Below, piece by piece: positions 1 to 11,153 of a stretch of DNA of 11,153 bases. Origin of the DNA: a virus (lineage: Duplodnaviria > Heunggongvirae > Uroviricota > Caudoviricetes); the IMG/VR virus record IMGVR_UViG_2541047938_000007, positions 1 through 11,153 of that record; one strand, written 5' to 3'. The position numbers and the translations under genes were made by a program. The number at the start of each line of letters is the position of its first letter. The stretch's first letter is position 1. Under the pieces are notes generated by a model. That model saw only the letters and a list, made by a program, of their open reading frames with translations. It did not search any database and was not told the origin of the DNA.

Positions 1-321
1 TCATATCGCTGGATTATCGTCTTCCACTGCACGGTTAATGAGATGTGTCAGAATGCCCTTCACATCCACCTCATCAAGAACCTCACCGTCAAGAACTTCA
101 CCATCTACCGTTATCAGTGCATCACCTCTACGCTTGGCAAAGTGACAGCCTCCTGAGTACGAAATCAGGTAGGTGCTATCTGGTGATGGCTTCATTCCCG
201 TTTCTATCACAGCAAACCCATGTGATGTCTCAATCACCAGGCTGTTAGCCGTGACGCCGCAGATAGTCTCTATGGTTAGCGTGCGTTCAATGTAGTCTTT
301 GGCTGGACTTGGAAACCTCAT
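1..321 (-). CDS. hypothetical protein (106 aa), distal gene of a putative SOS-regulated two-gene operon
   Basis: Complete ORF, ATG at 321..319 and stop at 3..1. Its start lies 1 nt after the stop (325..323) of the upstream 79-aa gene, suggesting translational coupling. Contains an internal DGEVLDGEVL duplication encoded by a 15-bp tandem repeat. No family recognised. Confidence 0.5.
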   Translation of the reverse strand: MRFPSPAKDYIERTLTIETICGVTANSLVIETSHGFAVIETGMKPSPDSTYLISYSGGCHFAKRRGDALITVDGEVLDGEVLDEVDVKGILTHLINRAVEDDNPAI

Positions 322-322
322 A

Positions 323-562
323 TCAAAGCCCTCCGTTCGGATTGTACATGAACCACGTCTTGTTCTCCCCGTGGTCAGGGGTGATGTCTTTGAAGCAGGT
401 GGTGTATCTGGCTATCCACTGATTTGCCTCTTCCAGGCTGAGATCCCAGTTGACGTTTAGTAGTTCCTGCACAAAATCAGCAGTTTTCACAATCCTGCGG
501 CCTGACCTTTCATGCACAATAGAGGCCCTGAAGGCAATCTCAATATCTGAACGACGCGGCAT
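323..562 (-). CDS. hypothetical small protein (79 aa), first gene of a putative LexA-regulated operon
   Basis: ATG at 562..560 preceded by GAGGTG about 7 nt upstream (minus-strand reading TTGAGGTGACTACATG). A LexA-box-like palindrome sits 22-37 nt upstream. No family recognised; not obviously DinI-like. Confidence 0.55.
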   Translation of the reverse strand: MPRRSDIEIAFRASIVHERSGRRIVKTADFVQELLNVNWDLSLEEANQWIARYTTCFKDITPDHGENKTWFMYNPNGGL

Positions 563-583
563 GTAGTCACCTCAAAATAAGCA

Positions 584-599
584 CTGTATACATATACAG
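584..599. promoter_or_regulatory. putative LexA (SOS) operator, CTGT-N8-ACAG
   Basis: Sequence cACTGTATACATATACAGca matches the E. coli LexA box consensus TACTGTATATATATACAGTA at 17 of 20 positions, with both CTGT and ACAG arms intact and an AT-rich centre. Lies in the divergent intergenic region, much closer to the 79-aa gene start (562) than to gtrA (678). Confidence 0.6.
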
Positions 600-677
600 C
601 ACATCTTATTCTGATAGTCGATCAAGTTGTCTGTTGGTGCTAAACTTCTGCCTTCTCAGAATTGACTGATTTTTCTA

Positions 678-1040
678 ATGTTAAAACTTTTTGCTAAGTA
701 CACATCGATTGGCGTACTCAACACGCTCATTCACTGGGTTGTGTTTGGTGTTTGCGTGTATGGACTATCAACAAGCCAGGCATTGGCTAACTTCGCTGGC
801 TTCGTCGTCGCAGTGAGCTTCAGTTTCTACGCTAATGCACGGTTCACCTTCAATGCTTCAACATCTACCCTGCGCTATATGCTCTATGTGGGCTTTATGG
901 GCACGCTGAGTGCTGCGGTAGGTTGGGCTGCTGACAGGTGTGGGTTACCGCCAATCGTCACACTGGTGGCGTTCTCAGCCATTAGCCTTGTATGTGGCTT
1001 TTTCTATTCTAAGTTCATTGTCTTTAGGGAAGCGAAATGA
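678..1040 (+). CDS. gtrA: GtrA, bactoprenol-linked glucose translocase (flippase) of O-antigen glucosylation systems
   Basis: 120-aa, very hydrophobic small protein with about four predicted TM segments. ATG at 678; stop overlaps the gtrB start (ATGA at 1037-1040). Size, hydropathy and sequence resemble GtrA/YfdG of serotype-converting phages (recalled). First gene of a three-gene gtr triad. Confidence 0.88.
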
Positions 1041-1948
1041 AAATTTCTCTGGTCGTTCCGGTCTTCAATGAAGAGGCCACGATACCGATTTTCTATAAAA
1101 CGGTGCGAGAGTTCGAGGGGCTAAAGCAATACGATGTTGAAATCGTGTTCATTAATGACGGAAGCAAAGACGCAACAGAATCAATTATTAATGCGCTTGC
1201 TGTTTCTGACTCGTTAGTTACCCCGCTCTCATTTACCAGGAACTTTGGCAAAGAGCCAGCTCTGTTTGCCGGGCTTGAGCACGCTACTGGCGATGCTGTA
1301 ATTCCGATTGATGTTGACCTGCAAGATCCGATTGAAGTCATCCCTCACCTGATTGAGAAATGGCATTCGGGTGCCGATATGGTACTGGCAAAACGCTCTG
1401 ATCGTTCTACTGATAGCAGGCTTAAGCGTAAGTCTGCTGAATGGTTCTACAAGCTGCACAATAAAATTAGCTCACCAAAAATTGAAGAAAACGTTGGCGA
1501 TTTTCGTCTGATGTCTCGCGAAGTTGTCGAAAACATTAAGCAATTACCAGAGCGCAATCTATTCATGAAAGGCGTTCTTAGTTGGGTTGGTGGAAGGACT
1601 GATGTCGTCGAATATGCACGTGCAGAGCGTGTCGCTGGAGATTCCAAATTTAATGGCTGGAAGCTTTGGAACCTTGCCCTTGAAGGCATTACAAGCTTCT
1701 CAACATTCCCATTACGTATGTGGACGTACATTGGATTATTTGTTGCTGGACTTTCATTCCTTTATGGCGCATGGATGATTTTAGATAAGATTCTTTTTGG
1801 CAACAGCGTTCCAGGCTACCCATCACTACTCGTTTCTATCCTGTTCCTGGGAGGCATACAACTTATAGGTATAGGGGTACTTGGTGAATACATTGGAAGA
1901 ATCTATGTGGAAGTAAAGAACCGACCGCGATATATTAAGAAAGGTTAA
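1037..1948 (+). CDS. gtrB: GtrB, bactoprenol glucosyltransferase (GT-2 family)
   Basis: 303 aa. N-terminal GT-2 features ([15 protein letters not shown], DxD-like IPIDVDLQD) and C-terminal hydrophobic helices. Translationally coupled to gtrA. Typical GtrB/YfdH size and order. Confidence 0.9.
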
Positions 1949-1952
1949 TTTC

Positions 1953-3320
1953 ATGAATATTAAGCTTGATGCTAAATTTTTATTCTTTGGTGCGCCATTA
2001 TTTTTTTATTTCCCTTTTATTATCAATGGTGTTTTATATAGAGATGATATAAATCGAGCAACAGAGAATTTTACATACTGGTCTTGGCTGGGAAGACCAG
2101 TATCAGATTTAATTTGGAAAGTCCTATCTTTAGGAGGTCAAGGACCACTCTTAGAACCATTGACGATTATATTATCTATTTTTATATTGGGTTTTTCAGT
2201 AAATCTGTTTTATCAAAAAACCAATCACTTATTTCATGACGCAGGTCCTTTTGTATATATTTTATTAGTAATATCTCCATTTTACACTCAAAATATTTCA
2301 TATCAATATGATGGCATAACGATGTCAATCGCAGTTGCATGCGCACTGATTGCCACAATTGTCACACTGAAAGAAAACTTAATATCATATTTAGTTCACT
2401 GCGCTTTGCTTGTTATAGCAATGTCAATTTATCAGACAACTCTAAATATGTTTGCAATCCTTTCTTTGGCAATTATTTTCGCGAAGACTTGCACACACAA
2501 AGCACTGCCATTGAAATATTTAGCATGCATCGCCTCATCTTTTGTTCTTGCGTTAATTTTATATAAATTTCTAATTATAGATGTATTTATTTCATCCTCA
2601 CGAAGTGACATATCACTAGACAATCTCCACACAAACTTCATTAACTTCTCATCAATTATAGCATCACCATTTAGAGGTTATTTAGTTTCAATATTTTATT
2701 GCATTGTCGCCTTATCTTTTTATTCTTTAATAAGAAAGAGAGGTGTTTTGATTGGAGTAACGTTCCTTTTCTTCTGTGTAATGGCATTCTGTTTAATTGC
2801 AGGTCCATTTATTTTACTAAAAGAAGGGATTGCAGAGCCTAGAATGTTATTAGGATTCTCACCATTTATATTTCTCTGCCTTTACCCACTTAGAGGGAGA
2901 ATCTCAACAGTATCTTCTGTGATAGTTTTTTCTGTATTTACAATAATATCTTACCAATGTGCCTCTTCAATTAAAACACAGAATGATTATGAAAAATCGC
3001 TTGCCATGCAATCCTCTCAGGAAATTATTAACGCGGTAAAGGAAAAGTCTTCAAAGGTTTATATACAAGGCGAATTTCCGCTATCAAAAATATCCAAAAA
3101 CTCTGCGGCGGATAATGAGTTCATTAACAAAATGATTGCCCCCTCCCCTTGGTATACAAGAATGTTAATTAACATTTATTATCCCGGAACTGTACACATT
3201 GATTGGAAGGGAAAATACTTATCTAGTCACGAATTAGAAAAATGCAATGTCTTAAAGAGTAATATCTTACTAACTATATATAACTGTAATAATATTACCT
3301 ACGTTGAAATTCACAAATAA
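1953..3320 (+). CDS. serotype-specific O-antigen glucosyltransferase (GtrC / type-specific Gtr family), polytopic membrane protein
   Basis: 455-aa ORF starting 5 nt after the gtrB stop. Highly hydrophobic N-terminal two-thirds with a more hydrophilic C-terminal domain. Markedly AT-rich relative to gtrA/gtrB, as is typical for the variable third gene of gtr operons. Exact type not recognised. Confidence 0.7.
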   Translation: MNIKLDAKFLFFGAPLFFYFPFIINGVLYRDDINRATENFTYWSWLGRPVSDLIWKVLSLGGQGPLLEPLTIILSIFILGFSVNLFYQKTNHLFHDAGPFVYILLVISPFYTQNISYQYDGITMSIAVACALIATIVTLKENLISYLVHCALLVIAMSIYQTTLNMFAILSLAIIFAKTCTHKALPLKYLACIASSFVLALILYKFLIIDVFISSSRSDISLDNLHTNFINFSSIIASPFRGYLVSIFYCIVALSFYSLIRKRGVLIGVTFLFFCVMAFCLIAGPFILLKEGIAEPRMLLGFSPFIFLCLYPLRGRISTVSSVIVFSVFTIISYQCASSIKTQNDYEKSLAMQSSQEIINAVKEKSSKVYIQGEFPLSKISKNSAADNEFINKMIAPSPWYTRMLINIYYPGTVHIDWKGKYLSSHELEKCNVLKSNILLTIYNCNNITYVEIHK

Positions 3321-3328
3321 ATAGTATT

Positions 3329-3351
3329 GTGCGCCGAAAAACTCGGCGCAC
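3329..3351. terminator. GC-rich hairpin between convergent gtr(type) and tailspike genes; putative bidirectional terminator
   Basis: GTGCGCCGA-aaaac-TCGGCGCAC, a perfect 9-bp stem, sits exactly between the gtr(type) stop (3318-3320) and the tailspike stop (3354-3356). Flanking U-tracts are weak. Confidence 0.45.
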
Positions 3352-3353
3352 TA

Positions 3354-5312
3354 TCATTGAGCTTGAGCCGTTAGTATTTGACCACCAGAATACGCAGTAA
3401 GACTAGTAATTTCATTAGCCAAAAGGACTTTGAACATATTTCGATCTTGACCAAATACAGCACCAGAAAAAAATGTACCAAGATTTCTATTTCCTCCGGC
3501 AGTAGGCATTCTTATAAATAAGTATGATGTTCCTTCATATGTCCCTGTAAACCAAGCATCATAATCTGCGAGAGATTGACTATCACAGTGAGCAGCTCTA
3601 ACTAATTTTGCGCGCGTAGAGATATTGCTGCCTACTGTATTAAAGTCATACGCTCCCGCTATGGGATTAAGATCTTGCCCGCTACGTAATGTATAAATAG
3701 TTCCAATGCACCCACGTCCACCATATTGCCCCCCCATAATGCGATAGTACGGACCCGCCGTTTGGTCTGGATTGGGTAGAGTCAAATCTCTACACATTGT
3801 TGTGCTAAATGTAGGAATGGTGGCCGTGCCTCCATCAAAACCGATAGTACTGAATGTTGCTGTTGTAGTATCATAAGCATTGCGCTGAGGCCACCCTGAC
3901 TCTGGTTTGTTACTATATATAATCTCAAACTTGGCACCATTTAATGTTCTAGATCTTGCCCCATTGCAAATGGTATCTGAACTACAAACCAGTTGCTTAA
4001 TGCTTACTTTTGAATAACCTGATATGTCAAACATATACGTCCCTGCAACTTGAGTTTGTGTATACAGTTGTAGGTTATTTATCTGTAAGTTTGCGCCAGT
4101 AGATTTAATTACAGTGCCATTATTATTCCTATTTGGCTGTTCACAACCTAGCGATGAAATGCTAAATGAACCACTATTAAATACAAATGGTGTACCCAAG
4201 CAATCATCTGAAGCTAGAGGTCCAACTTCACAATAAGACACTGACAATTCGAATGAACAGTAGTTTGAACGAAACACACTGCAATTTGCAATAGTGTAGC
4301 TCGTTCCTCCCTTTATAAAAAACCCTCCGTAAATTCCAGCATTATCAGATCCTTGAACAACTATATCTTTTACTGTAATAGCAACAAATGTATTACCACC
4401 AAAGTAGACACCCCACTTCATGGCGAGGATAAATAGATCACTTAATTCTTGGTAAACCGCTGTATTAGGCGTGTAATACCCATAGCTGTCTTCAGTCGTA
4501 TCAATTATCCTGAGACCGTGAATAACATTCCCACGCTTACCTTTATTATAAAACACCGCGTTCACATCCTGTGTGCTAACGCCTACTTTCCTGATTATAG
4601 ACCCCCTACCTTCACCAACAAAACGACTACCAGGTTGTTGGTAGTATAACTCATTATATACATCCTGAAGATCATATAAAATAACACTATCGGTAATAGT
4701 ATAATCTCCAACTGGAACAAAAATGATTTTACCAAACTGGGCAGACACCTTAGATGCTCTATTAAAAGCGAGTGTCCAATCAGGGTCTGAATCAAGTTTA
4801 AAATCCAATACCGAGATTAATTCAGCGTTTTTGTTATGCTGCGTTCTGCTTGCAGTCCCATCAAAAGGCTGCTTAACAGCAATAAGAGCATCTCCGTATT
4901 CAGGAGATGCCAACATCACCCTAAGAGATGAATCTCCAATGCCTACCCATGCTCCAGCGCCAACACCACCACTTGAATCTGGGGTCGAGCCTGCATTTAC
5001 AACTTTTGGAAGGTCACCATCCCAACGGTAATATTCACCGTCACCATCAGGTAACTTCCAGCGTAAAGCTTGATCAGCTTCAGTTAACGTATTGCCTTCC
5101 TGGAAGGAGTCCATCAAATTCCATCCCATGGATGATAGTTTTTCCTGATAGCGCTTTTCCATTCCATACCAGGTAAGGCGATCAACGCCGAATCTGTCTT
5201 TCCATACCTCATTTTCTTTGTCATTAGAAAGGTAGTCAAAGTTCTGAGAATTGTCGTATAAATCTTTTGCAGCAGCAGACCCCAGCGGATTGCCGGTATT
5301 ATAAGTAGTCAT
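3354..5312 (-). CDS. phage tailspike / tail fibre protein (receptor-binding protein, probable beta-helix O-antigen-recognising domain)
   Basis: 652-aa ORF, ATG at 5312..5310 with GAGG 6 nt upstream. Last gene of the minus-strand tail module, directly after the J-like gene. Gly/Ser/Thr/Asn-rich with beta-strand-like periodicity typical of tailspikes. The N-terminal about 150 aa resemble conserved anchor domains of enterobacterial prophage tail fibres (recalled, unverified). Confidence 0.65.
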   Translation of the reverse strand: MTTYNTGNPLGSAAAKDLYDNSQNFDYLSNDKENEVWKDRFGVDRLTWYGMEKRYQEKLSSMGWNLMDSFQEGNTLTEADQALRWKLPDGDGEYYRWDGDLPKVVNAGSTPDSSGGVGAGAWVGIGDSSLRVMLASPEYGDALIAVKQPFDGTASRTQHNKNAELISVLDFKLDSDPDWTLAFNRASKVSAQFGKIIFVPVGDYTITDSVILYDLQDVYNELYYQQPGSRFVGEGRGSIIRKVGVSTQDVNAVFYNKGKRGNVIHGLRIIDTTEDSYGYYTPNTAVYQELSDLFILAMKWGVYFGGNTFVAITVKDIVVQGSDNAGIYGGFFIKGGTSYTIANCSVFRSNYCSFELSVSYCEVGPLASDDCLGTPFVFNSGSFSISSLGCEQPNRNNNGTVIKSTGANLQINNLQLYTQTQVAGTYMFDISGYSKVSIKQLVCSSDTICNGARSRTLNGAKFEIIYSNKPESGWPQRNAYDTTTATFSTIGFDGGTATIPTFSTTMCRDLTLPNPDQTAGPYYRIMGGQYGGRGCIGTIYTLRSGQDLNPIAGAYDFNTVGSNISTRAKLVRAAHCDSQSLADYDAWFTGTYEGTSYLFIRMPTAGGNRNLGTFFSGAVFGQDRNMFKVLLANEITSLTAYSGGQILTAQAQ

Positions 5313-5326
5313 ATGGGCCTCATTAA

Positions 5327-5348
5327 CAAAAAACCTGCCAATGCAGGT
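5327..5348 (-). terminator. putative intrinsic terminator/attenuator between the J-like gene and the tailspike gene
   Basis: On the minus strand ACCTGC-attg-GCAGGT (6-bp stem, 5333-5348) is followed by UUUUUUG (5332-5327), then the tailspike RBS and ATG. Confidence 0.45.
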
Positions 5349-5369
5349 TAATGGAGATGTTATTAGTGA

Positions 5370-7592
5370 TTAAGAAATGTTGCCGGGGTAAGTGGCATTA
5401 TCATATTGATAGAAAGAGTCGCGATATTCTTTGGCTGTTACCTGACATGTTCCGTCAGACTGCGGTGATATCTCTGAGATTAGTGCACTGTAACCAACAC
5501 GTGAAGATTCGCAGAATATAAGACGTGGAGGTTCTATCGATTGATCATTCAGTATGATGCCAATGAACTCATCCTGTTCAGATACCGATAGTTCATAATC
5601 ACTAACTTTAGTAACTGGAAGCAGACCAGAAGCTGATCCATCCTGGTAGCGAATCAATGCGCGAGGATTGTTGAATGTCCAGTCAAGAGGCTCTGAAACT
5701 GTGAATGTCGTTACGCCGCCACTCGTACTCATATCATCGATCAATGTGCTTATTGTTTTGCTACCAGGAATGTCATCAGTAAACACAATTCTGTCACCTA
5801 CGCTATAGCAAAGTGCATCCATTTCCGTGGTCGTTGTATGGGTAAGACGCTGCTGCCTGTACTTCATCAGTCGTCGCATACCTATCTGATAAGCCCTGTC
5901 CTGGTCAAGAACACCATCAAGATCGTAATCTTCTATTTTCACTGGCGTAGGATTGTCAGACGTTCTGCACTGAACAGTCTCTTCAGCCCACGTAGTGCCG
6001 TTAATGTAAGTGACATCCACTCCATCATAATCATCGGCTGATGGTGCAACGAAGGCCGTTTGAAGCGCTTCTGTCATTTCCTGCGGACTAATTATTCCCG
6101 TCCACGTTTTTACCCCCTCCCTTCCCACTGAAGCCATACCGTCAGACAGCAGAAAATAGCTTTTACCTGCGTTAGTGACTTTCTGTAGCATTTCAAGCGC
6201 GGAAACTGAGTCGGTTGTTGCGTAATCGAAAAACTCGCTATCAGGCGTCCAGTAAGATGATTCCAGCATATCAATCACTTCGTTATCCATCGCAAGCCCT
6301 AACTCATTACCAATGTGGTAAAGCGCGCCTGAAATGCTCCTGGAAATACCGGAATCATAAATGCGTGTGGCGACTACGTTGACACGGCGATCAGACTGAG
6401 CGGCAAGCTTTCCACCTGTTTCGACTGAGACAGCCATAGTGGTTACACCAGAGTATGATGATGGTCTTGAAAGCAACCTCCCCCTTAATGACTGCCAGTA
6501 CATGTTATCCCTGCTGTTATCCTGGCCTTGTTCGTTCGTTCTCCTGCATCTAACCTCCACCAAACCGGCCGATGCCAGCGTGATACGTTCGGTAAAACCT
6601 AACCCATTAATATTTTGCTGATTGTAAGACCCAGTTTTGCTTGTCCATCCTGAACCCGAACCGTAAACACGGTACTGAATTTCCCACTGAACAATCCTGT
6701 TCTGCTTCTTGCCTTTCTTGTTATACCCGCAAATACCGTTAGCCAGGTCAACAACGCCGCCAACCAGGTCAGTTAGTCCCTGAATCACCTGAGGGTCTTT
6801 GAAAACATCGCCCATGTCAGTGATCGCATTCTGTAATCCTGACAGGTCAACATTTGCAAGACCGGTAGCAATCTCAATTTTTACGCCGTTAACCTGCGTC
6901 TCCATGTCTTCAAACAGGGAGTTTACTTTCACCAGTTTTTCGATGTCTGCATCATCAGGGGCAACACCAAACTGCTTTGCCGCGTCCATGTACTGGCGAA
7001 GCTTTTCACCACCCTGATCAAGTAAGGGCAGGAGCTTTGACAGGTCATTACCAAGGCTTTCGAGAATGGTTGTTTTTTCGGCGTTTGTTTTTATCTTACC
7101 AAGAGCATCGCTGATAGCGAGAAGTTGTTTATCAGGTGACTCACCGGCTAATTTTTTTGCGGATAATCCAAGCGCATCAAGCGCACCGACAGCTTCACCA
7201 GATTTATTTAAGACCGCATCACCAATCTTATCGCCAATATCTTTAAAGATATCGGCCATCTGGTCACCAGATACCCCAGCCTTTTCGGCTGCATACTGCC
7301 AAGCCAGCAGAGACTGAGTAGACATATTGAGCGACTTAGCCCAACGGTCTGTTTCAGTGATCTGTTTGGAAGTGGTTTTCAGCAGGTTATAACCAGCAAC
7401 GCCTACACCAATTGCCGCAGCGCTTGCTGCTGTCGCAAAAGCGGTGAACGCGGTGGCCGCAGCCTTGGCGTCGGATTGTACCTGTTTACGCCATTTTTGA
7501 GATGCTCGCTCAGACTGGCTTAGGCCAGAGACAAAACCACCAACCTTAGCAACAAGGTCGATAGTCAACGTGCCGAGGGATTTACCAGCCAT
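5370..7592 (-). CDS. tail protein: tape-measure-like N-terminal region fused in frame to a host-specificity (lambda J-like) region
   Basis: 740 aa. ATG at 7592..7590 lies 1 nt after the stop of the GT frameshift product, the expected tape-measure position. Residues 1 to about 290 are Ala/Lys/Gly-rich and coiled-coil-like, typical of a tape-measure N-terminus. From about residue 300 there are J-like motifs (LRGRLL...PSSY; AYQIGMRRL...FSVGDRIVFTDD; PPRLIFCESSRV), aligned by eye to the central part of lambda J. Confidence 0.65.
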   Translation of the reverse strand: MAGKSLGTLTIDLVAKVGGFVSGLSQSERASQKWRKQVQSDAKAAATAFTAFATAASAAAIGVGVAGYNLLKTTSKQITETDRWAKSLNMSTQSLLAWQYAAEKAGVSGDQMADIFKDIGDKIGDAVLNKSGEAVGALDALGLSAKKLAGESPDKQLLAISDALGKIKTNAEKTTILESLGNDLSKLLPLLDQGGEKLRQYMDAAKQFGVAPDDADIEKLVKVNSLFEDMETQVNGVKIEIATGLANVDLSGLQNAITDMGDVFKDPQVIQGLTDLVGGVVDLANGICGYNKKGKKQNRIVQWEIQYRVYGSGSGWTSKTGSYNQQNINGLGFTERITLASAGLVEVRCRRTNEQGQDNSRDNMYWQSLRGRLLSRPSSYSGVTTMAVSVETGGKLAAQSDRRVNVVATRIYDSGISRSISGALYHIGNELGLAMDNEVIDMLESSYWTPDSEFFDYATTDSVSALEMLQKVTNAGKSYFLLSDGMASVGREGVKTWTGIISPQEMTEALQTAFVAPSADDYDGVDVTYINGTTWAEETVQCRTSDNPTPVKIEDYDLDGVLDQDRAYQIGMRRLMKYRQQRLTHTTTTEMDALCYSVGDRIVFTDDIPGSKTISTLIDDMSTSGGVTTFTVSEPLDWTFNNPRALIRYQDGSASGLLPVTKVSDYELSVSEQDEFIGIILNDQSIEPPRLIFCESSRVGYSALISEISPQSDGTCQVTAKEYRDSFYQYDNATYPGNIS

Positions 7593-7593
7593 G

Positions 7594-8237
7594 CTATGTC
7601 CACTCCTGCATAGCCTGTTCCAGTGAAATGGAAGGCTCGTTAATGTGTGGTGTGAAGTCTGTTACTTTGAAGTGGGGTGAATCTTTTCCACGGTTGACGT
7701 TTGCCAGCACAGAAGAAATTAGGCCAGCGGCCCACTCGGTACGCATCATTCCGTTAAGGCTTCCGTACTTTTGACGGTAAAGAACCCAGTCGCGATACTC
7801 TGTAACGCTAACGCGTTCTTTTGCTTCAGCAATGGTGCGGCCGCCGATCCCGTTGAGAACTAATTCACACCAGAATTCGTCGTCTGCGCTGAGTTCGCCT
7901 TTCCCAGGTCGTTAACCTGCTGAATAGCGACAAGCAGAGCAACCGTAAGAGCACCATCGAGTGCGCCGCGCTCAGGATCTGCTTCACCAGTGATATCGGC
8001 AACAGTGAAAACTGGAGCGCCATTTTCATCACAGATGGATGCAGCGATACGCCCTGCTACACCATCAATTTTCCCCACCGCTGAAAGAACATTTGATACC
8101 GCGTCGTGATAACCCATTGGTCGGATATAAACGGTAGCTGTGATCTCTTTATCGCCCTGCTTCCAGGTGATTTCCTTCTCAACAGGACGACCAGTAAACG
8201 CCCCTGCCTGTTTTAACGAATCCAGATTCAGTTTCAT
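7594..8237 (-). CDS. tail assembly chaperone G-T fusion made by programmed -1 ribosomal frameshift
   Basis: The -1 frame stays open from the heptamer GGGAAAG (7905..7899, minus strand) for about 100 codons to a TAG at 7596..7594, which ends 1 nt before the next gene's ATG. This is the same arrangement and the same heptamer as lambda G/GT. Confidence 0.6.
7860..8237 (-). CDS. tail assembly chaperone (lambda gpG analogue)
   Basis: 125 aa, ATG at 8237..8235 with GAGAGGAAAG upstream. Sits immediately upstream of the tape-measure-like gene. Contains the slippery heptamer G GGA AAG 13 codons before its stop. Confidence 0.75.
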   Translation of the reverse strand: MKLNLDSLKQAGAFTGRPVEKEITWKQGDKEITATVYIRPMGYHDAVSNVLSAVGKIDGVAGRIAASICDENGAPVFTVADITGEADPERGALDGALTVALLVAIQQVNDLGKANSAQTTNSGVN

Positions 8238-8254
8238 TTCTTTCCTCTCAGTTT

Positions 8255-8270
8255 GCGGGGTTTCCCCCGC
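8255..8270 (-). repeat. GC hairpin copy 1 (mRNA sense GCGGGG-gaaa-CCCCGC), between the major-tail-like ORF and the G gene
   Basis: 6-bp stem with a GNRA-type GAAA loop on the late transcript, followed by the RBS and ATG of the chaperone gene. Identical core to the copy at 8943-8960. Confidence 0.5.
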
Positions 8271-8287
8271 TTATTAATGCCTGGTTA

Positions 8288-8689
8288 TTAGCTCGTTGGT
8301 TGGGCCTTTGGAACCCAAACACCTTGCCCTGAACGCTGAATGGTTGCGGAAGTTTGCACGACCGTATTCGCCTGGAAGTCGAACGGGAAATCTGAAACAT
8401 AACCCTGGAATACATACCAGGTACGTGTATCCGGCAGAGAAAGACCATCAACTGCATCTGGATCACCAGACGTCGCTACCGTTGGTTCATCCGTTCCGTC
8501 AGCCCAGCCAATAGCGAAGGTCAGGTTTGTCTGGTCACTGGATTCAGCCAGGTTGCTCAGCATTACATGGCTGGAGTTTGCCGGGTCTGCGTTAAGAGCT
8601 ACAGTAGCCTGACCGGGGGTGCGCAGACCTTTTTTGTAGGAACGAGTATTGGTTTCACTCAGACAGGTATCTTCAATCTGGTCTGACAA
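8288..8689 (-). CDS. major tail protein-like ORF, possibly 5'-truncated (lambda V position)
   Basis: 133-aa ORF in the ORF track that actually starts at a TTG with no convincing RBS. Occupies the position just upstream of G/GT, and has weak by-eye resemblance to the lambda V core. It is in the same frame as the upstream 56-aa ORF, separated by a single TGA. May be a remnant rather than an intact gene. Confidence 0.4.
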
Positions 8690-8764
8690 AGGAAAATATC
8701 GGAGTCCAACCGCGAGATGATGGTTGCTGTAGTGCTTTCTCTTTCCGTCTAAAAGGATTCCACA

Positions 8765-8935
8765 TCAGCCATTCTCCGCGTTTTCTTTTTTACTTTTACG
8801 CACCACTGCTTTTTTGCTGGTTACGTATTCCGCCTTTTTCAGCAGAACCAGCACCTTTGCGCACTGGTCATTCACAATTTTCTCATCACCTGGCAATGAG
8901 TCATGTGTACGCTGAAGGTATCTGATTTTTGCCAT
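8765..8935 (-). CDS. small Lys-rich hypothetical ORF (56 aa)
   Basis: ATG at 8935..8933 sits 5 nt after the hairpin at 8943-8960. A strong SD-like GAAGGAGG lies immediately upstream of that hairpin. Not in the supplied ORF track (shorter than 60 aa). Coding status uncertain. Confidence 0.3.
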   Translation of the reverse strand: MAKIRYLQRTHDSLPGDEKIVNDQCAKVLVLLKKAEYVTSKKAVVRKSKKENAENG

Positions 8936-8942
8936 TTGAAAT

Positions 8943-8960
8943 GGCGGGGTTTCCCCCGCC
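8943..8960 (-). repeat. GC hairpin copy 2 (mRNA sense GGCGGGG-gaaa-CCCCGCC), between the structural-gene fragment and the 56-aa ORF
   Basis: 7-bp stem with GAAA loop, same core as copy 1. On the mRNA it is flanked by GAAGGAG upstream and an AUG 5 nt downstream. Confidence 0.5.
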
Positions 8961-8967
8961 CTCCTTC

Positions 8968-9468
8968 TTAGCTGGTTGAGCCAGTGCTGTAATCCACGTC
9001 AGAGATAACGGCTACGGCTGCATCACGGCGACGCTTCCAGTTAATCCAACGCTCGGCACGGATTGCCACGCTGTTGGTCTGGAACATAGACACCAGTTCA
9101 ACTGGAGTTGGCGTTGTGCTGTCGTGGGTCGGATCGCTCTGCATTTCCAGAGAAGCTTCGCGAGACATATCAACGGCGACGCCGCCATCATCTGCCAGAT
9201 AAACATCTGGTGCGTTAACCAGTACCAGTTGGTTGCCAACGTACTGTGAAACGATCACCGGCAAGCCCTGGAACGTACCGCCCAGCATGGTCATATCTGG
9301 GTATTCTTTCTGACCAAGCGCGTTTTTACGCATAGACAGAGTAAGTGCCGTAGTGCTGGACATCAGCCATACCGCACCATTCGGCTGCAGGTTGTTCGTA
9401 ATGAACTGACCAAATGCTGCAGAAGCATCAGTACAGGCTAACCATGAGCATAGTTCGATGTCACGCGT
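8968..9468 (-). pseudogene. 5'-truncated phage structural gene fragment (capsid or head-tail protein-like C-terminal part)
   Basis: The reading frame is open from 9468 down to the TAA at 8970..8968. The annotated ATG at 9363 has no RBS and is probably an internal Met. The fragment runs head-on into the 5' end of the integrase fragment. Family assignment is tentative. Confidence 0.4.
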
Positions 9469-10057
9469 TTACAGGTGGGGATATCAACGTGGATTTGTGC
9501 CAGGCAACCCATGCGTAGGCGTCGATAAATACCCTAAACCTCAGCGCGACCGATACATTACGGATGAAGAGTATTTAGCGATTTATGACTGTGCTACTGA
9601 TCCGGTCAAAGCAGCAATGGAAATTGCTTATCTCTGTGCCGCCAGGGTTTCCGATGTTCTGAAAATGGACTGGAATCAGATAATGGATAAAGGAATTTTC
9701 ATTCAACAGGGTAAAACTGGAGTTAAGCAGATTAAAGCGTGGACAGACCGTTTGCATTCAGCAGTCAATCTTTGCAGGAAATCAGGGGAAGATGGCGCTG
9801 TCATCAAAACCATGTACGGAGAGCGATATTCCTATAAAGGTTTCAATGAAGCCTGGAGAAAGGCGAGAAATGCGGCTGCTGAAAAAATTGGCAGACCGTT
9901 AGACTGCACGTTCCATGATCTGAAGGCGAAAGGCATTTCTGACTATGAAGGAAGTGGCCGCGATAAGCAAAAATTCAGTGGTCACAAAACTGAATCACAG
10001 GTGCTGGTATACGACAGGAAAGTAAAAATCAGCCCAACTTTGAACAGAAAAATGTGA
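9458..10057 (+). pseudogene. tyrosine recombinase (phage integrase), C-terminal catalytic-domain fragment, 5'-truncated
   Basis: 199-aa ORF with catalytic-domain features (AARVSDV Arg region, HDLKAKG, GHKTESQVLVYDR with the C-terminal Tyr). Lacks the N-terminal arm-binding and core-binding domains; there is an in-frame stop at 9407-9409 just upstream. It is transcribed toward the 3' end of the adjacent tRNA, as expected for an int next to attL. Confidence 0.8.
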
Positions 10058-10069
10058 GTTTGAGATACA

Positions 10070-10099
10070 GCGCCGGGTGCAAATCTGGCGTTATTTTTT
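10070..10099 (+). terminator. putative Rho-independent terminator downstream of the integrase fragment
   Basis: Stem CGCCGG / CTGGCG (one G-U pair) with an 8-nt loop, followed by TTATTTTTT, starting 13 nt after the int stop. Confidence 0.5.
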
Positions 10100-10126
10100 C
10101 TCAGTGGATTTTCTCATTTTTTCTCA
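10093..10126. repeat. direct repeats ATTTTTTCTCA (x2, plus a third TTTTCTC) between int and the tRNA 3' end; candidate att-arm/IHF-type sites
   Basis: ATTTTTTCTCA at 10093-10103 and 10116-10126, with TTTTCTC also at 10109-10115. Located in the expected attL arm region. Function not demonstrable from sequence. Confidence 0.3.
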
Positions 10127-10172
10127 ACGGGATGTTGGTCACTGAATCGAAACACTGTAAGTGCTTGAATGG

Positions 10173-10262
10173 TGGCGGAGAGAGGGGGATTTGAACCCCC
10201 GGTAGAGTTGCCCCTACTCCGGTTTTCGAGACCGGTCCGTTCAGCCGCTCCGGCATCTCTCC
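10173..10262 (-). tRNA. serU: tRNA-Ser (anticodon CGA)
   Basis: The minus strand reads GGAGAGATGCCGGAGCGGCTGAACGGACCGGTCTCGAAAACCGGAGTAGGGGCAACTCTACCGGGGGTTCAAATCCCCCTCTCTCCGCCA (90 nt). It has a 7-bp acceptor stem, anticodon stem CCGGT/ACCGG with loop CUCGAAA (anticodon CGA), a long variable arm, a T-loop GGTTCAAATCC, and an encoded CCA. Confidence 0.9.
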
Positions 10263-10355
10263 GTTCAGATGGTTGCCATGATGCCAGGAAATTTGGCATT
10301 TTAACAGTCCCTGTCCGTGCAATTTTGTTCAAGTGACGAGTTTGCGAGCAAAACG

Positions 10356-11153
10356 ATGATTAAGTGGCCCTGGAAAGTACAAGAATCAGCACATCAAACT
10401 GCCCTTCCCTGGCAGGAAGCACTATCGATCCCCCTTTTAACGTGTCTGACGGAACAGGAACAAAGCAAATTAGTCACTCTTGCCGAACGTTTTTTACAGC
10501 AAAAGCGGCTTGTTCCTTTACAGGGCTTTGAACTGGATTCATTAAGAACCTGCCGGATAGCACTTCTATTTTGCCTACCCGTTCTGGAATTAGGACTGGA
10601 ATGGCTGGATGGTTTTCATGAAGTCTTAATTTATCCTGCGCCATTTGTGGTCGATGATGAATGGGAAGACGATATCGGTCTGGTGCATAACCAACGTATT
10701 GTTCAGTCAGGTCAGAGCTGGCAGCAAGGGCCTATCGTTTTGAACTGGTTGGATATACAAGATTCTTTTGATGCTTCTGGTTTTAACCTGATTATTCATG
10801 AAGTCGCTCATAAGCTGGACACCCGTAACGGCGATCGCGCCAGCGGAGTTCCCTTTATTCCGTTGCGTGAGGTTGCTGGCTGGGAACACGATCTTCATGC
10901 TGCAATGAACAACATTCAGGAAGAAATCGAATTGGTTGGCGAGAATGCGGCGAGCATTGATGCTTATGCTGCCAGTGATCCTGCTGAATGTTTTGCCGTA
11001 CTTTCTGAATATTTCTTTAGCGCCCCAGAACTTTTTGCTCCTCGTTTCCCTTCATTGTGGCAACGTTTCTGCCAATTTTATCAACAAGATCCTTTGCAGA
11101 GACTGCATCACGCTAATGATACAGACTCGTTTTCGGCGACGAATGTTCATTAA
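10356..11153 (+). CDS. mtfA: MtfA (Mlc titration factor A), zinc-dependent peptidase
   Basis: 265-aa ORF from the ATG at 10356 (MIKWPWKV...); the ORF-track start at 10317 is a GTG extension. Contains the HEXXH zinc-peptidase motif ([10 protein letters not shown]). Matches E. coli MtfA/YeeI as recalled. Complete, with TAA at 11151-11153. Confidence 0.9.

Follow-up and report, generated by a model that had tools for sequence, protein, structure and literature searches.

Tailed phages need hundreds of capsid and tail-tube subunits, a dozen portal subunits and a few tape-measure molecules from a single late transcript, and stem-loops behind the genes of abundant proteins have long been suspected as a means of unequal expression. 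Stem-loops directly behind the capsid gene have been described in SPP1, where a 58-aa open reading frame (ORF) comes next (PMC6316719), and in T7 and LUZ100 (PMC10134795). In the gal operon, a hairpin at the 3' end of galE, with an 8-bp stem and a 4-nt loop, blocks exonucleases and sets polarity (PMC11925234), and in T4 genes 38 and 25 have split ribosome-binding sites (Nivinskas et al. 1999; Malys and Nivinskas 2009; reviewed in PMC3014915). Here we analyse an 11,153-nt stretch of DNA from a virus of the Caudoviricetes (IMG/VR record IMGVR_UViG_2541047938_000007, positions 1 to 11,153; the whole stretch is called the window below), in which the same short G/C-rich hairpin stands twice among late genes transcribed from the minus strand. 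Both represent an ordinary phage device, being stem-loops that directly follow the genes of the two most abundant virion proteins. With moderate confidence we read both copies as 3' hairpins that would block exonucleases and prolong the capsid and tail-tube segments of the messenger RNA (mRNA) over the segments downstream of them.

The 16-mer GCGGGGTTTCCCCCGC occurs at 8255-8270 and at 8944-8959 on the plus strand, exact in both cases, and a scan of the whole window found no third copy even with up to three mismatches. Two copies compare with 0.03 expected, and none of 200 dinucleotide shuffles contained two or more. Copy 1 begins 17 nt past the stop codon of the tail-tube gene (TAA, 8290-8288) and ends 17 nt ahead of the AUG of the tail assembly chaperone (8237); copy 2 begins 7 nt past the stop codon of the major capsid gene (TAA, 8970-8968) and ends 7 nt ahead of the AUG of a 56-aa ORF (8935), which we call P56 (Table 1). 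Exact matching and minus-strand folding agree with the original prediction, made from the letters of the window, of two identical hairpins with perfect stems of 6-7 bp and a GNRA loop; its spacing of about 690 bp was measured at 689 bp. The GAAA loop, closed by a G-C pair on the minus strand, places both hairpins in the GNRA tetraloop class. They rank among the strongest simple hairpins in a hairpin scan of the whole window, and the minus-strand fold of each is about 1.5 kcal/mol stabler than the plus-strand fold. The likeness between the copies ends at the edge of the hairpin, the flanks being unrelated. The stems, all G/C, are of the kind found in intrinsic terminators. As the original prediction had noted, no U-tract follows either stem on the minus strand, where the next bases are AAACUGAGAGG and AUUUCAAAUG, and a run of U (at least 4-5 of 8) is absent from the bases 3' of the stems (AAACUGAG and AUUUCAAA). 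A search of the whole window against Rfam with cmscan (E up to 1) returned a tRNA-Ser and a sub-threshold antisense match over it, and nothing at the hairpins. Two candidate roles were rejected: processing by RNase III requires about 20 bp or more, whereas these stems have 6-7 bp and reach no more than 11 pairs even if a weak G-U extension is counted; and the site of the G/GT frameshift lies at the opposite end of the chaperone gene.

Megablast of positions 7500-9500 against a phage collection gave no match, and relatives of the head fragment were found by a distant blastn search with word size 11. An intact relative spanning both parts of the window is present in four complete E. coli genomes. 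In the prophage of E. coli TST3 (L002; NZ_CP154406, 1.966-1.982 Mb) the order is terminase, capsid, P56, portal, connectors, tail terminator, tail tube, chaperone, T and tape measure, and the identical 16-mer stands behind the stop codon of the capsid gene and, 4,758 bp away, behind that of the tail-tube gene. The 16-mer is thus found at the equivalent junctions of a related prophage; the hairpin of copy 1 is also identical at the same junction in a second relative, L001. In the alignment, window positions 8201-8685 correspond to L002 3443-3927 and positions 8682-9429 to L002 7993-8740, which leaves a deletion of 4,065 bp (L002 3928-7992) comprising portal, connectors, tail terminator and the 5' end of the tail-tube gene. 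The hairpins stand close together in the window because this deletion removed the genes between them. Their supposed location, a pair of successive gaps between genes of the late tail operon, has to be corrected: copy 2 belongs to the head module, between capsid gene and P56, and copy 1 to the tail-tube/chaperone junction. Nor does either site coincide with a deletion scar, as had been supposed, since the junction falls inside coding sequence and is separated from copy 1 by 412 nt and from copy 2 by 258 nt; at these distances we also rejected the hairpins as mediators of the deletion. The exact deletion junction had no match among the genomes searched, one per species.

To compare the junctions we used samples of viral contigs and of genomes, that is, the matches listed, which include related sequences. 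The layout of the capsid junction is constant: in 80 viral loci listed with relatives of the capsid C-terminus there is always a stop codon, a few nucleotides, the motif (A/G)GGAG(G), a hairpin, 6-11 nt and the ATG of P56, a layout shared by the isolated Salmonella phage FSL SP-016. Of 42 unique capsid/P56 junctions, 40 have a hairpin, and the other 2 are start-calling artefacts. Its sequence varies. The stem GGCGGGG/CCCCGCC carries the loops GAAA, GCGA, GAAU, GAAG or GAAC; phages of the Shiga toxin (Stx) type have GCGGGAGGC-GCGA-GCUUCCCGC; ACGGGAGGC-GUGC-GCCUCCCGU shows a double change from G-C to A-U affecting both arms; and GCGGGGA-GAAA-UCCCCGC is followed in one lineage (L222) by seven U. 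An alignment of 23 capsid-junction variants with MAFFT and RNAalifold gave a three-pair consensus that is meaningless, since the stems differ in length and register, and conservation of structure was therefore judged by folding each junction sequence separately.

At the tail junction the picture is more varied. Among 99 viral loci listed with relatives of both tail tube and chaperone, 40 have no gap, stop and start codons overlapping (TAATG), and nearly all the others have a gap of 40-55 nt with a hairpin. The stem GCGGGG/CCCCGC is found in 20 unique tail junctions, with the loops GAAA (15), GCAA, GCGA, GGAA, GUAA and GAAG, five of these six types being GNRA; the flanks of the 20 junctions are only 45-59% identical, and the identity of the stem is due to the way this subset was selected. 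Other tail junctions carry GAGCGGGG-UAUGUU-CCCCGCUC, (U/A)GCGGGGC-UGCG-GCCCCGUA, GCGGGGG-CGAU-CCCCCGC, CAGGGGC-N5-6-GCCCCUG or GGGGC-UUCG-GCCCC (L223). The tail site keeps structure, not sequence. The conservation of position in intact relatives that had been proposed as a check therefore stands in part: both junctions keep hairpins, but about 40% of the tail junctions have neither gap nor hairpin.

Tuerk and colleagues reportedly described, in 1988, extra-stable tetraloop hairpins (C(UUCG)G and GNRA) in intergenic regions of T4, and the hairpins considered here have the same short G/C stems with UUCG or GNRA loops between cistrons. The capsid hairpin of L001 and the tail hairpin of L223 are examples with UUCG. 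Tetraloop hairpins are a structural class, not a homologous family, and membership tells of thermodynamic stability only. L001 has the tail module and tail hairpin of the window but an unrelated HK97-type head module, and no P56. In L001 (11342-11390, minus strand) the HK97-type capsid gene is followed by AAGCGGCC-UUCG-GGCCGCUU, an extra-stable C(UUCG)G hairpin that has no U-tract, and a small ORF of the DUF7210 family fills the place that P56 holds in the family of the window.

The same 16-mer recurs far beyond these relatives. A scan of viral contigs found it at least 126 times, in at least 120 stretches. Of 126 occurrences listed, 95 lie between co-directional ORFs with GAAA in the sense orientation, against 8 in the antisense orientation; when these occurrences were clustered by their flanks, 36 sense clusters stood against 2 antisense, and the median distance from stop codon to hairpin among the clusters was 11 nt. 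The strand bias extends to the loop, because among 60 oriented sites listed with the stem GGCGGGG-N4-CCCCGCC a GNRA loop is found 26 times in the sense orientation and never as its complement, GAAA (14) and GCAA (8) being the commonest. The ORFs upstream of the listed 16-mers fall into 55 unrelated clusters. A PHROG scan of 40 representative unrelated upstream ORFs identified 15 as major head proteins, with 10 different best-hit PHROGs, and one each as virion structural protein, major tail protein and tail sheath; two had another annotated function (RecT and anti-repressor) and 20 were unannotated. At least 10 unrelated families of major capsid gene thus have the 16-mer behind them.

It is found in cellular genomes as well. 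The cellular scan was dominated by high-GC genomes, where orientation based on ORFs is unreliable, so loci below 0.60 GC were listed and ten of them annotated. Among these loci are five, in diverse bacteria (L441, L458, L481, L418 and L435), where the 16-mer lies 6-30 nt past the stop codons of flagellin, rpoA, fusA (EF-G), glnA and P2-family prophage capsid genes. Flagellin, rpoA, fusA and glnA are classic highly expressed cistrons. The hairpin is a generic device, reached by convergence, behind cistrons for abundant proteins. A different arrangement is seen in an 89.8-kb viral contig (L022), where four copies lie within 3 kb (398-413, 1499-1514, 1739-1754 and 3388-3403) as a repeated cassette, TAGACA-A-GCGGGGGAAACCCCGC-TATAAT, with the hairpin as the 17-nt spacer of a promoter-like -35/-10 pair right after a stop codon; this cassette looks like a combined terminator/promoter unit.

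The structure kept as sequence changes, the GNRA loop confined to the sense strand and the recurrence after genes of abundant proteins support the suggestion that the two copies share a function at the RNA level, whether in stability, processing or attenuation. The reading that we favour is stability. The hairpins would act in cis, as RNA stem-loops on the late polycistronic transcript of a siphophage, each directly 3' of the gene for one of the two virion proteins needed in largest numbers, the capsid (copy 2) and the tail tube (copy 1). Transcription would end downstream, or an endonuclease such as RNase E would cut the mRNA there; the stable G/C stem with its GNRA loop would then halt 3'-to-5' exonucleases (PNPase, RNase II), and the capsid and tube segments would outlast those of the portal, chaperone and tape measure, giving a step-down of expression within one operon. 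We infer this barrier, as we do the translational role considered below; stabilisers of the gal or repetitive extragenic palindromic (REP) type are among the closest known systems. In the window, as expected of such stabilisers, each copy is a sense-strand hairpin just 3' of a highly expressed cistron with co-directional genes downstream, and in relatives structure is kept while sequence varies, differing stems and loops folding at the same junctions. The gal hairpin is alike in being short, G/C-rich and downstream of a highly expressed cistron. There it halts 3' exonucleases once Rho has terminated transcription or RNase E has cut the message, and so creates polarity without being a terminator. 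Unlike the copies in the window, it is located within the following gene and not between genes, and the sequences are unrelated. REP stabilisers, such as that of malE-malF, are operon-internal exonuclease-blocking hairpins of E. coli. They share a consensus of their own and number in the hundreds per genome. The hairpins studied here have no known resemblance to the consensus of the REP/BIME (bacterial interspersed mosaic element) family, and there are two copies in the window and two in each 17-kb relative locus.

Several points weigh against this reading. The case for an exonuclease mechanism is wholly positional and comparative, and the counts given above do not represent independent events. 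The element at the tail site is dispensable, given that about 40% of related tail-tube/chaperone junctions do without a hairpin. Nearly every late-operon gap of at least 50 nt in the intact relative holds some hairpin, not only these two. The L222 lineage has a true U-tract after its capsid hairpin, and termination would contribute at least there. The Shine-Dalgarno (SD) sequence ahead of copy 2 is predicted to be mostly paired in the window, so the structure could throttle translation of P56 rather than enable it. Finally, the hairpins of this decayed prophage probably do nothing.

A different account of the capsid copy, which we hold to be a serious possibility but somewhat short of probable, makes it mainly translational: SD, hairpin and AUG would together form a split ribosome-binding site (RBS) for P56, and the hairpin, by enabling or throttling initiation, would set the expression of P56 and of the portal. 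The arrangement at this junction is suggestive. In 38 of 40 unique capsid junctions the hairpin directly adjoins a GGAG-type motif, across clades with different stems (in the L222 clade 2 extra nt separate the two), and 39 of 40 lack any SD motif in the stretch from hairpin to AUG. The distance from SD to the P56 AUG is 23-31 nt along the sequence and about 6-13 nt with the hairpin folded out. In the window the last G of AAGGAGG is the first base of the stem, and the AUG is 24 nt away linearly, or about 7 nt if the hairpin is folded out; the SD thus stands more than 15 nt from the AUG, with no nearer SD, and the hairpin fills the interval. P56 itself is small, basic and conserved, its 33 unique homologues sharing a conserved pattern (those of the Stx clade are 73 aa long), and its stop codon overlaps the start of the portal gene (UGAUG), as also seen in L002. 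It has no match in Pfam, NCBIfam or the sequences of the PDB, and the gene at L002 8080-8247 (minus strand) is unannotated in the RefSeq record of E. coli TST3.

The precedent of T4 genes 38 and 25 (PMC3014915) fits in its dimensions, with linear SD-AUG distances of 22 and 27 nt and folded distances of 5 and 11 nt, in the hairpin that fills the interval and in the conservation of the layout across a phage group. This likeness holds for the capsid-side copy only. Unlike in T4, moreover, the capsid-side hairpin stands directly after the stop codon of a highly expressed gene, and in the clade of the window the SD may pair with the 3' flank: the prediction is that it pairs for the most part with UUUC 3' of hairpin 2, with a probability of being unpaired of 0.21, against 0.13 in L222, 0.32 in L249 and 0.44-0.62 in the Stx clade, whose SD lacks complementarity to the 3' flank and is predicted to be fairly open. 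Pairing of a purine-rich 5' flank with a pyrimidine-rich 3' flank is also found in unrelated terminator-like contexts. Above all, a split RBS leaves the tail-side copy unexplained. There the SD of the chaperone (GAGAGGA, 8249-8243) lies after hairpin 1, 5 nt from the AUG, and is predicted to be unpaired (P 0.90), and no SD is present upstream of hairpin 1. Stabilisation of the upstream mRNA, our preferred reading, covers both copies, and the capsid copy very probably belongs to the initiation region of P56 in addition; as a part of that region it would set the synthesis of P56 and, by coupling, of the portal. A bolder proposal, which we consider unlikely, would make GGAGG-hairpin-AUG an obligatory split RBS across a large family of enterobacterial siphophage head modules, including Stx-converting phages and FSL SP-016, fixing the translation of P56 and portal and helping to set the capsid:portal stoichiometry; in addition, GCGGGGGAAACCCCGC, convergent after at least 10 capsid families, might owe this recurrence to recognition by a host RNA-decay factor, or to optimal resistance against one, and not to stability alone.

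The position right after the major capsid gene also recalls T7 Tphi, the LUZ100 element (PMC10134795) and the SPP1 gene 13 terminator (PMC6316719), and the hairpins could accordingly be leaky terminators or pause sites, that is, attenuators, past which fewer transcripts would reach the genes downstream of capsid and tail tube. The three elements are alike in being a stable stem-loop a few nt past the capsid stop, inside the structural cluster, at the point where the need for protein drops, and the gene that comes next in SPP1 is likewise a small ORF without an assigned function. The difference is that all three carry a U-tract and count as terminators (in T7 and LUZ100, for T7 RNA polymerase), whereas neither copy in the window or in its close relatives has a U-tract on the sense strand. 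In favour of attenuation, the L222 hairpin does continue into U7, and a T-rich tract follows the hairpin in 17 of the 64 16-mer clusters listed, a minority that also speaks against termination as the main role. Operons of the type of the window further depart from those of T7, LUZ100 and SPP1 in having a second identical hairpin after the tail tube and canonical terminators upstream. In L002, L001 and FSL SP-016 a canonical terminator (hairpin and U-tract; coordinates in Table 1) stands just upstream of the capsid and tail-tube genes, and hairpins without a U-tract just downstream, so these two cistrons have a structure at either end; the late operon of L002, of about 20 genes, has six gaps, and four of these flank them. 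Possible roles of the upstream terminators are to stabilise the 5' end after processing, or to insulate against leaky expression in the lysogen. Canonical terminators ahead of essential late genes imply that late transcription is resistant to termination, and a weaker signal without a U-tract would then be ignored, or would at least be unlikely to act mainly by termination. We regard attenuation as an improbable main function; it and stabilisation are not exclusive of each other.

The identity of the two copies in the clade of the window, together with the small, basic P56 of no assigned function encoded beside copy 2, could be taken to mean that the hairpin is the binding site of a trans-acting protein, either a phage late regulator or P56 itself, that co-regulates the head and tail modules. 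The two sites, however, drift independently. Among 20 viral contigs listed with both junctions, the same 16-mer is at both in 12 and the hairpins differ in 8, with combinations such as GCGA or GCAA at the tail and GAAA at the capsid, UGCG at the tail and GAAC at the capsid, no tail hairpin and GCGA at the capsid, and one capsid variant with an extra C. Such independent variation argues against a shared sequence-specific factor, and equally against concerted evolution and a seeded repeat. The tail hairpin is moreover kept in L001, with its different head module and no P56, and the same hairpin is found in unrelated phages and in cellular operons, all of which makes a dedicated binding protein very improbable.

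That both copies are insertions of one small mobile or duplicated repeat, similar to a miniature inverted-repeat transposable element or to REP, had been offered as an alternative. Two identical 16-mers in one genome invite the idea, and L022, where four copies share about 45 nt of common flanks, shows that hairpin cassettes exist in phages. In the window, on the other hand, similarity stops at the hairpin and there are no target-site duplications or terminal repeats; relatives hold non-homologous hairpins at the same positions, or at the tail no gap at all, and the 55 unrelated upstream contexts speak for convergence on a simple stable hairpin. We set this alternative aside as very hard to sustain. 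Finally, an element acting at the DNA level (a cruciform, or a hotspot of recombination or module exchange) or a terminator for antisense, plus-strand transcription might be imagined, as the stem is a perfect palindrome and a lenient terminator scan flags both copies on the plus strand only, but the T tracts there are poor (TTATTAAT and CTCCTTCTT), the hairpin is stabler on the minus strand, the sense bias among the matches listed is strong both for the GNRA loop and for the 16-mer clusters, and the homology of L001 and L002 runs across the tail hairpin up to the terminator upstream of the tail-tube gene, so that the hairpin is not a mosaic boundary, and we give such a role next to no credence.

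The coordinates of the features discussed are collected in Table 1.

Table 1. Features of the window and canonical terminators of intact relatives
Feature	Position	Strand	Evidence or remark
gtrA, gtrB and GtrII-type glucosyltransferase	678-3320	+	
Tailspike	3354-5312	-	
ORF beginning as tape measure and continuing TipJ-like	5370-7592	-	
T (tail assembly)	7594-7749	-	
Tail assembly chaperone (G-like)	7860-8237	-	Phage_TAC_13, 7.8e-35
Hairpin copy 1	8255-8270	-	transcript GCGGGG-GAAA-CCCCGC, 6 bp, GNRA loop, -12.6 kcal/mol
Tail-tube (major tail) gene lacking about 33 N-terminal codons	8288-8685	-	Phage_TTP_11, 3.4e-52, profile positions 36-154 of 154
Deletion junction, 4-nt microhomology	8682-8685		alignment to L002
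5' remnant of portal gene, about 26 codons	8686-8765	-	alignment to L002 portal start
56-aa ORF (P56)	8765-8935	-	phrog_829 at 1.9e-21
Hairpin copy 2	8943-8960	-	transcript GGCGGGG-GAAA-CCCCGCC, 7 bp, GNRA loop, -15.9 kcal/mol
SD-like AAGGAGG, directly 5' of hairpin 2	8960-8966	-	read from sequence
3' fragment of major capsid gene (protease-capsid fusion), last about 154 codons	8968-9429	-	5' part deleted
Truncated integrase, 199 aa	9458-10057	+	
Canonical terminators, hairpin and T6-7	L002 10217-10274, 4028-4079		
Canonical terminator, hairpin and T6-7	L001 9286-9337		
Canonical terminators, hairpin and T6-7	L375 3105-3159, 9167-9224		

The window is a degraded siphophage remnant that carries gtrABC and lies beside tRNA-Ser(CGA) and mtfA. 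Its tail-tube gene shares 94% identity with the genes annotated as tail tube in L001 and L002, and the capsid fragment is 89% identical to the major capsid gene of L002 over 8682-9429; the ORF at 8968-9363 matches phrog_617 (major head protein) at 4.8e-40, its match to Phage_capsid being weak. The portal remnant is out of frame with that of the tail tube, as far as the ORF list allows the frame to be inferred. Homology to the capsid gene ends at 9429, and from 9432 onwards the window is homologous to the integrase/tRNA-Ser/mtfA region of E. coli, so that the junction at about 9430 marks a second large deletion, in which everything from the end of the integrase to the middle of the capsid gene was lost. 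The 740-aa ORF at 5370-7592 has a 5' end like the tape-measure genes of relatives and a body with FNIII-A_GpJ and Phage-tail_3 (TipJ/GpJ) domains, and is apparently the product of a further, in-frame deletion joining the tape measure to the tip protein J. The prophage retains neither early region nor terminase, and portal, connectors and most of the capsid gene are likewise lost. Since genes for late expression and virion assembly are lost, both hairpins in the window are probably relics with no likely present function.

The gtrA/gtrB/GtrII-type cluster (O-antigen glucosylation, serotype conversion) is intact, while the neighbouring structural genes are deleted or fused, which suggests that the remnant has been retained for its gtr genes. 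Between the convergent ends of the glucosyltransferase (3320) and the tailspike (3354) lies the strongest simple hairpin of the window, at 3329-3351 (GTGCGCCGA-AAAAC-TCGGCGCAC, -16.4 kcal/mol on either strand), which looks like a bidirectional terminator. The antisense Rfam match over the tRNA-Ser is to the Plastid-psbl-rps4 3'UTR family (10176-10227, plus strand; 40.9 bits against a gathering threshold of 68) and is almost certainly spurious.

For tailed phages in general, our results add comparative support to the idea that stem-loops help to set the abundance of virion proteins: structure is kept amid drift of sequence, GNRA loops are found in the sense orientation only, and the hairpin recurs after unrelated capsid genes and after bacterial genes for abundant proteins. 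A strong tetraloop hairpin without a U-tract behind a long late gene may also serve annotation, as a cue that the gene encodes a major capsid or tail protein, and the comparison flags a candidate split ribosome-binding site upstream of the unannotated 56-aa gene.

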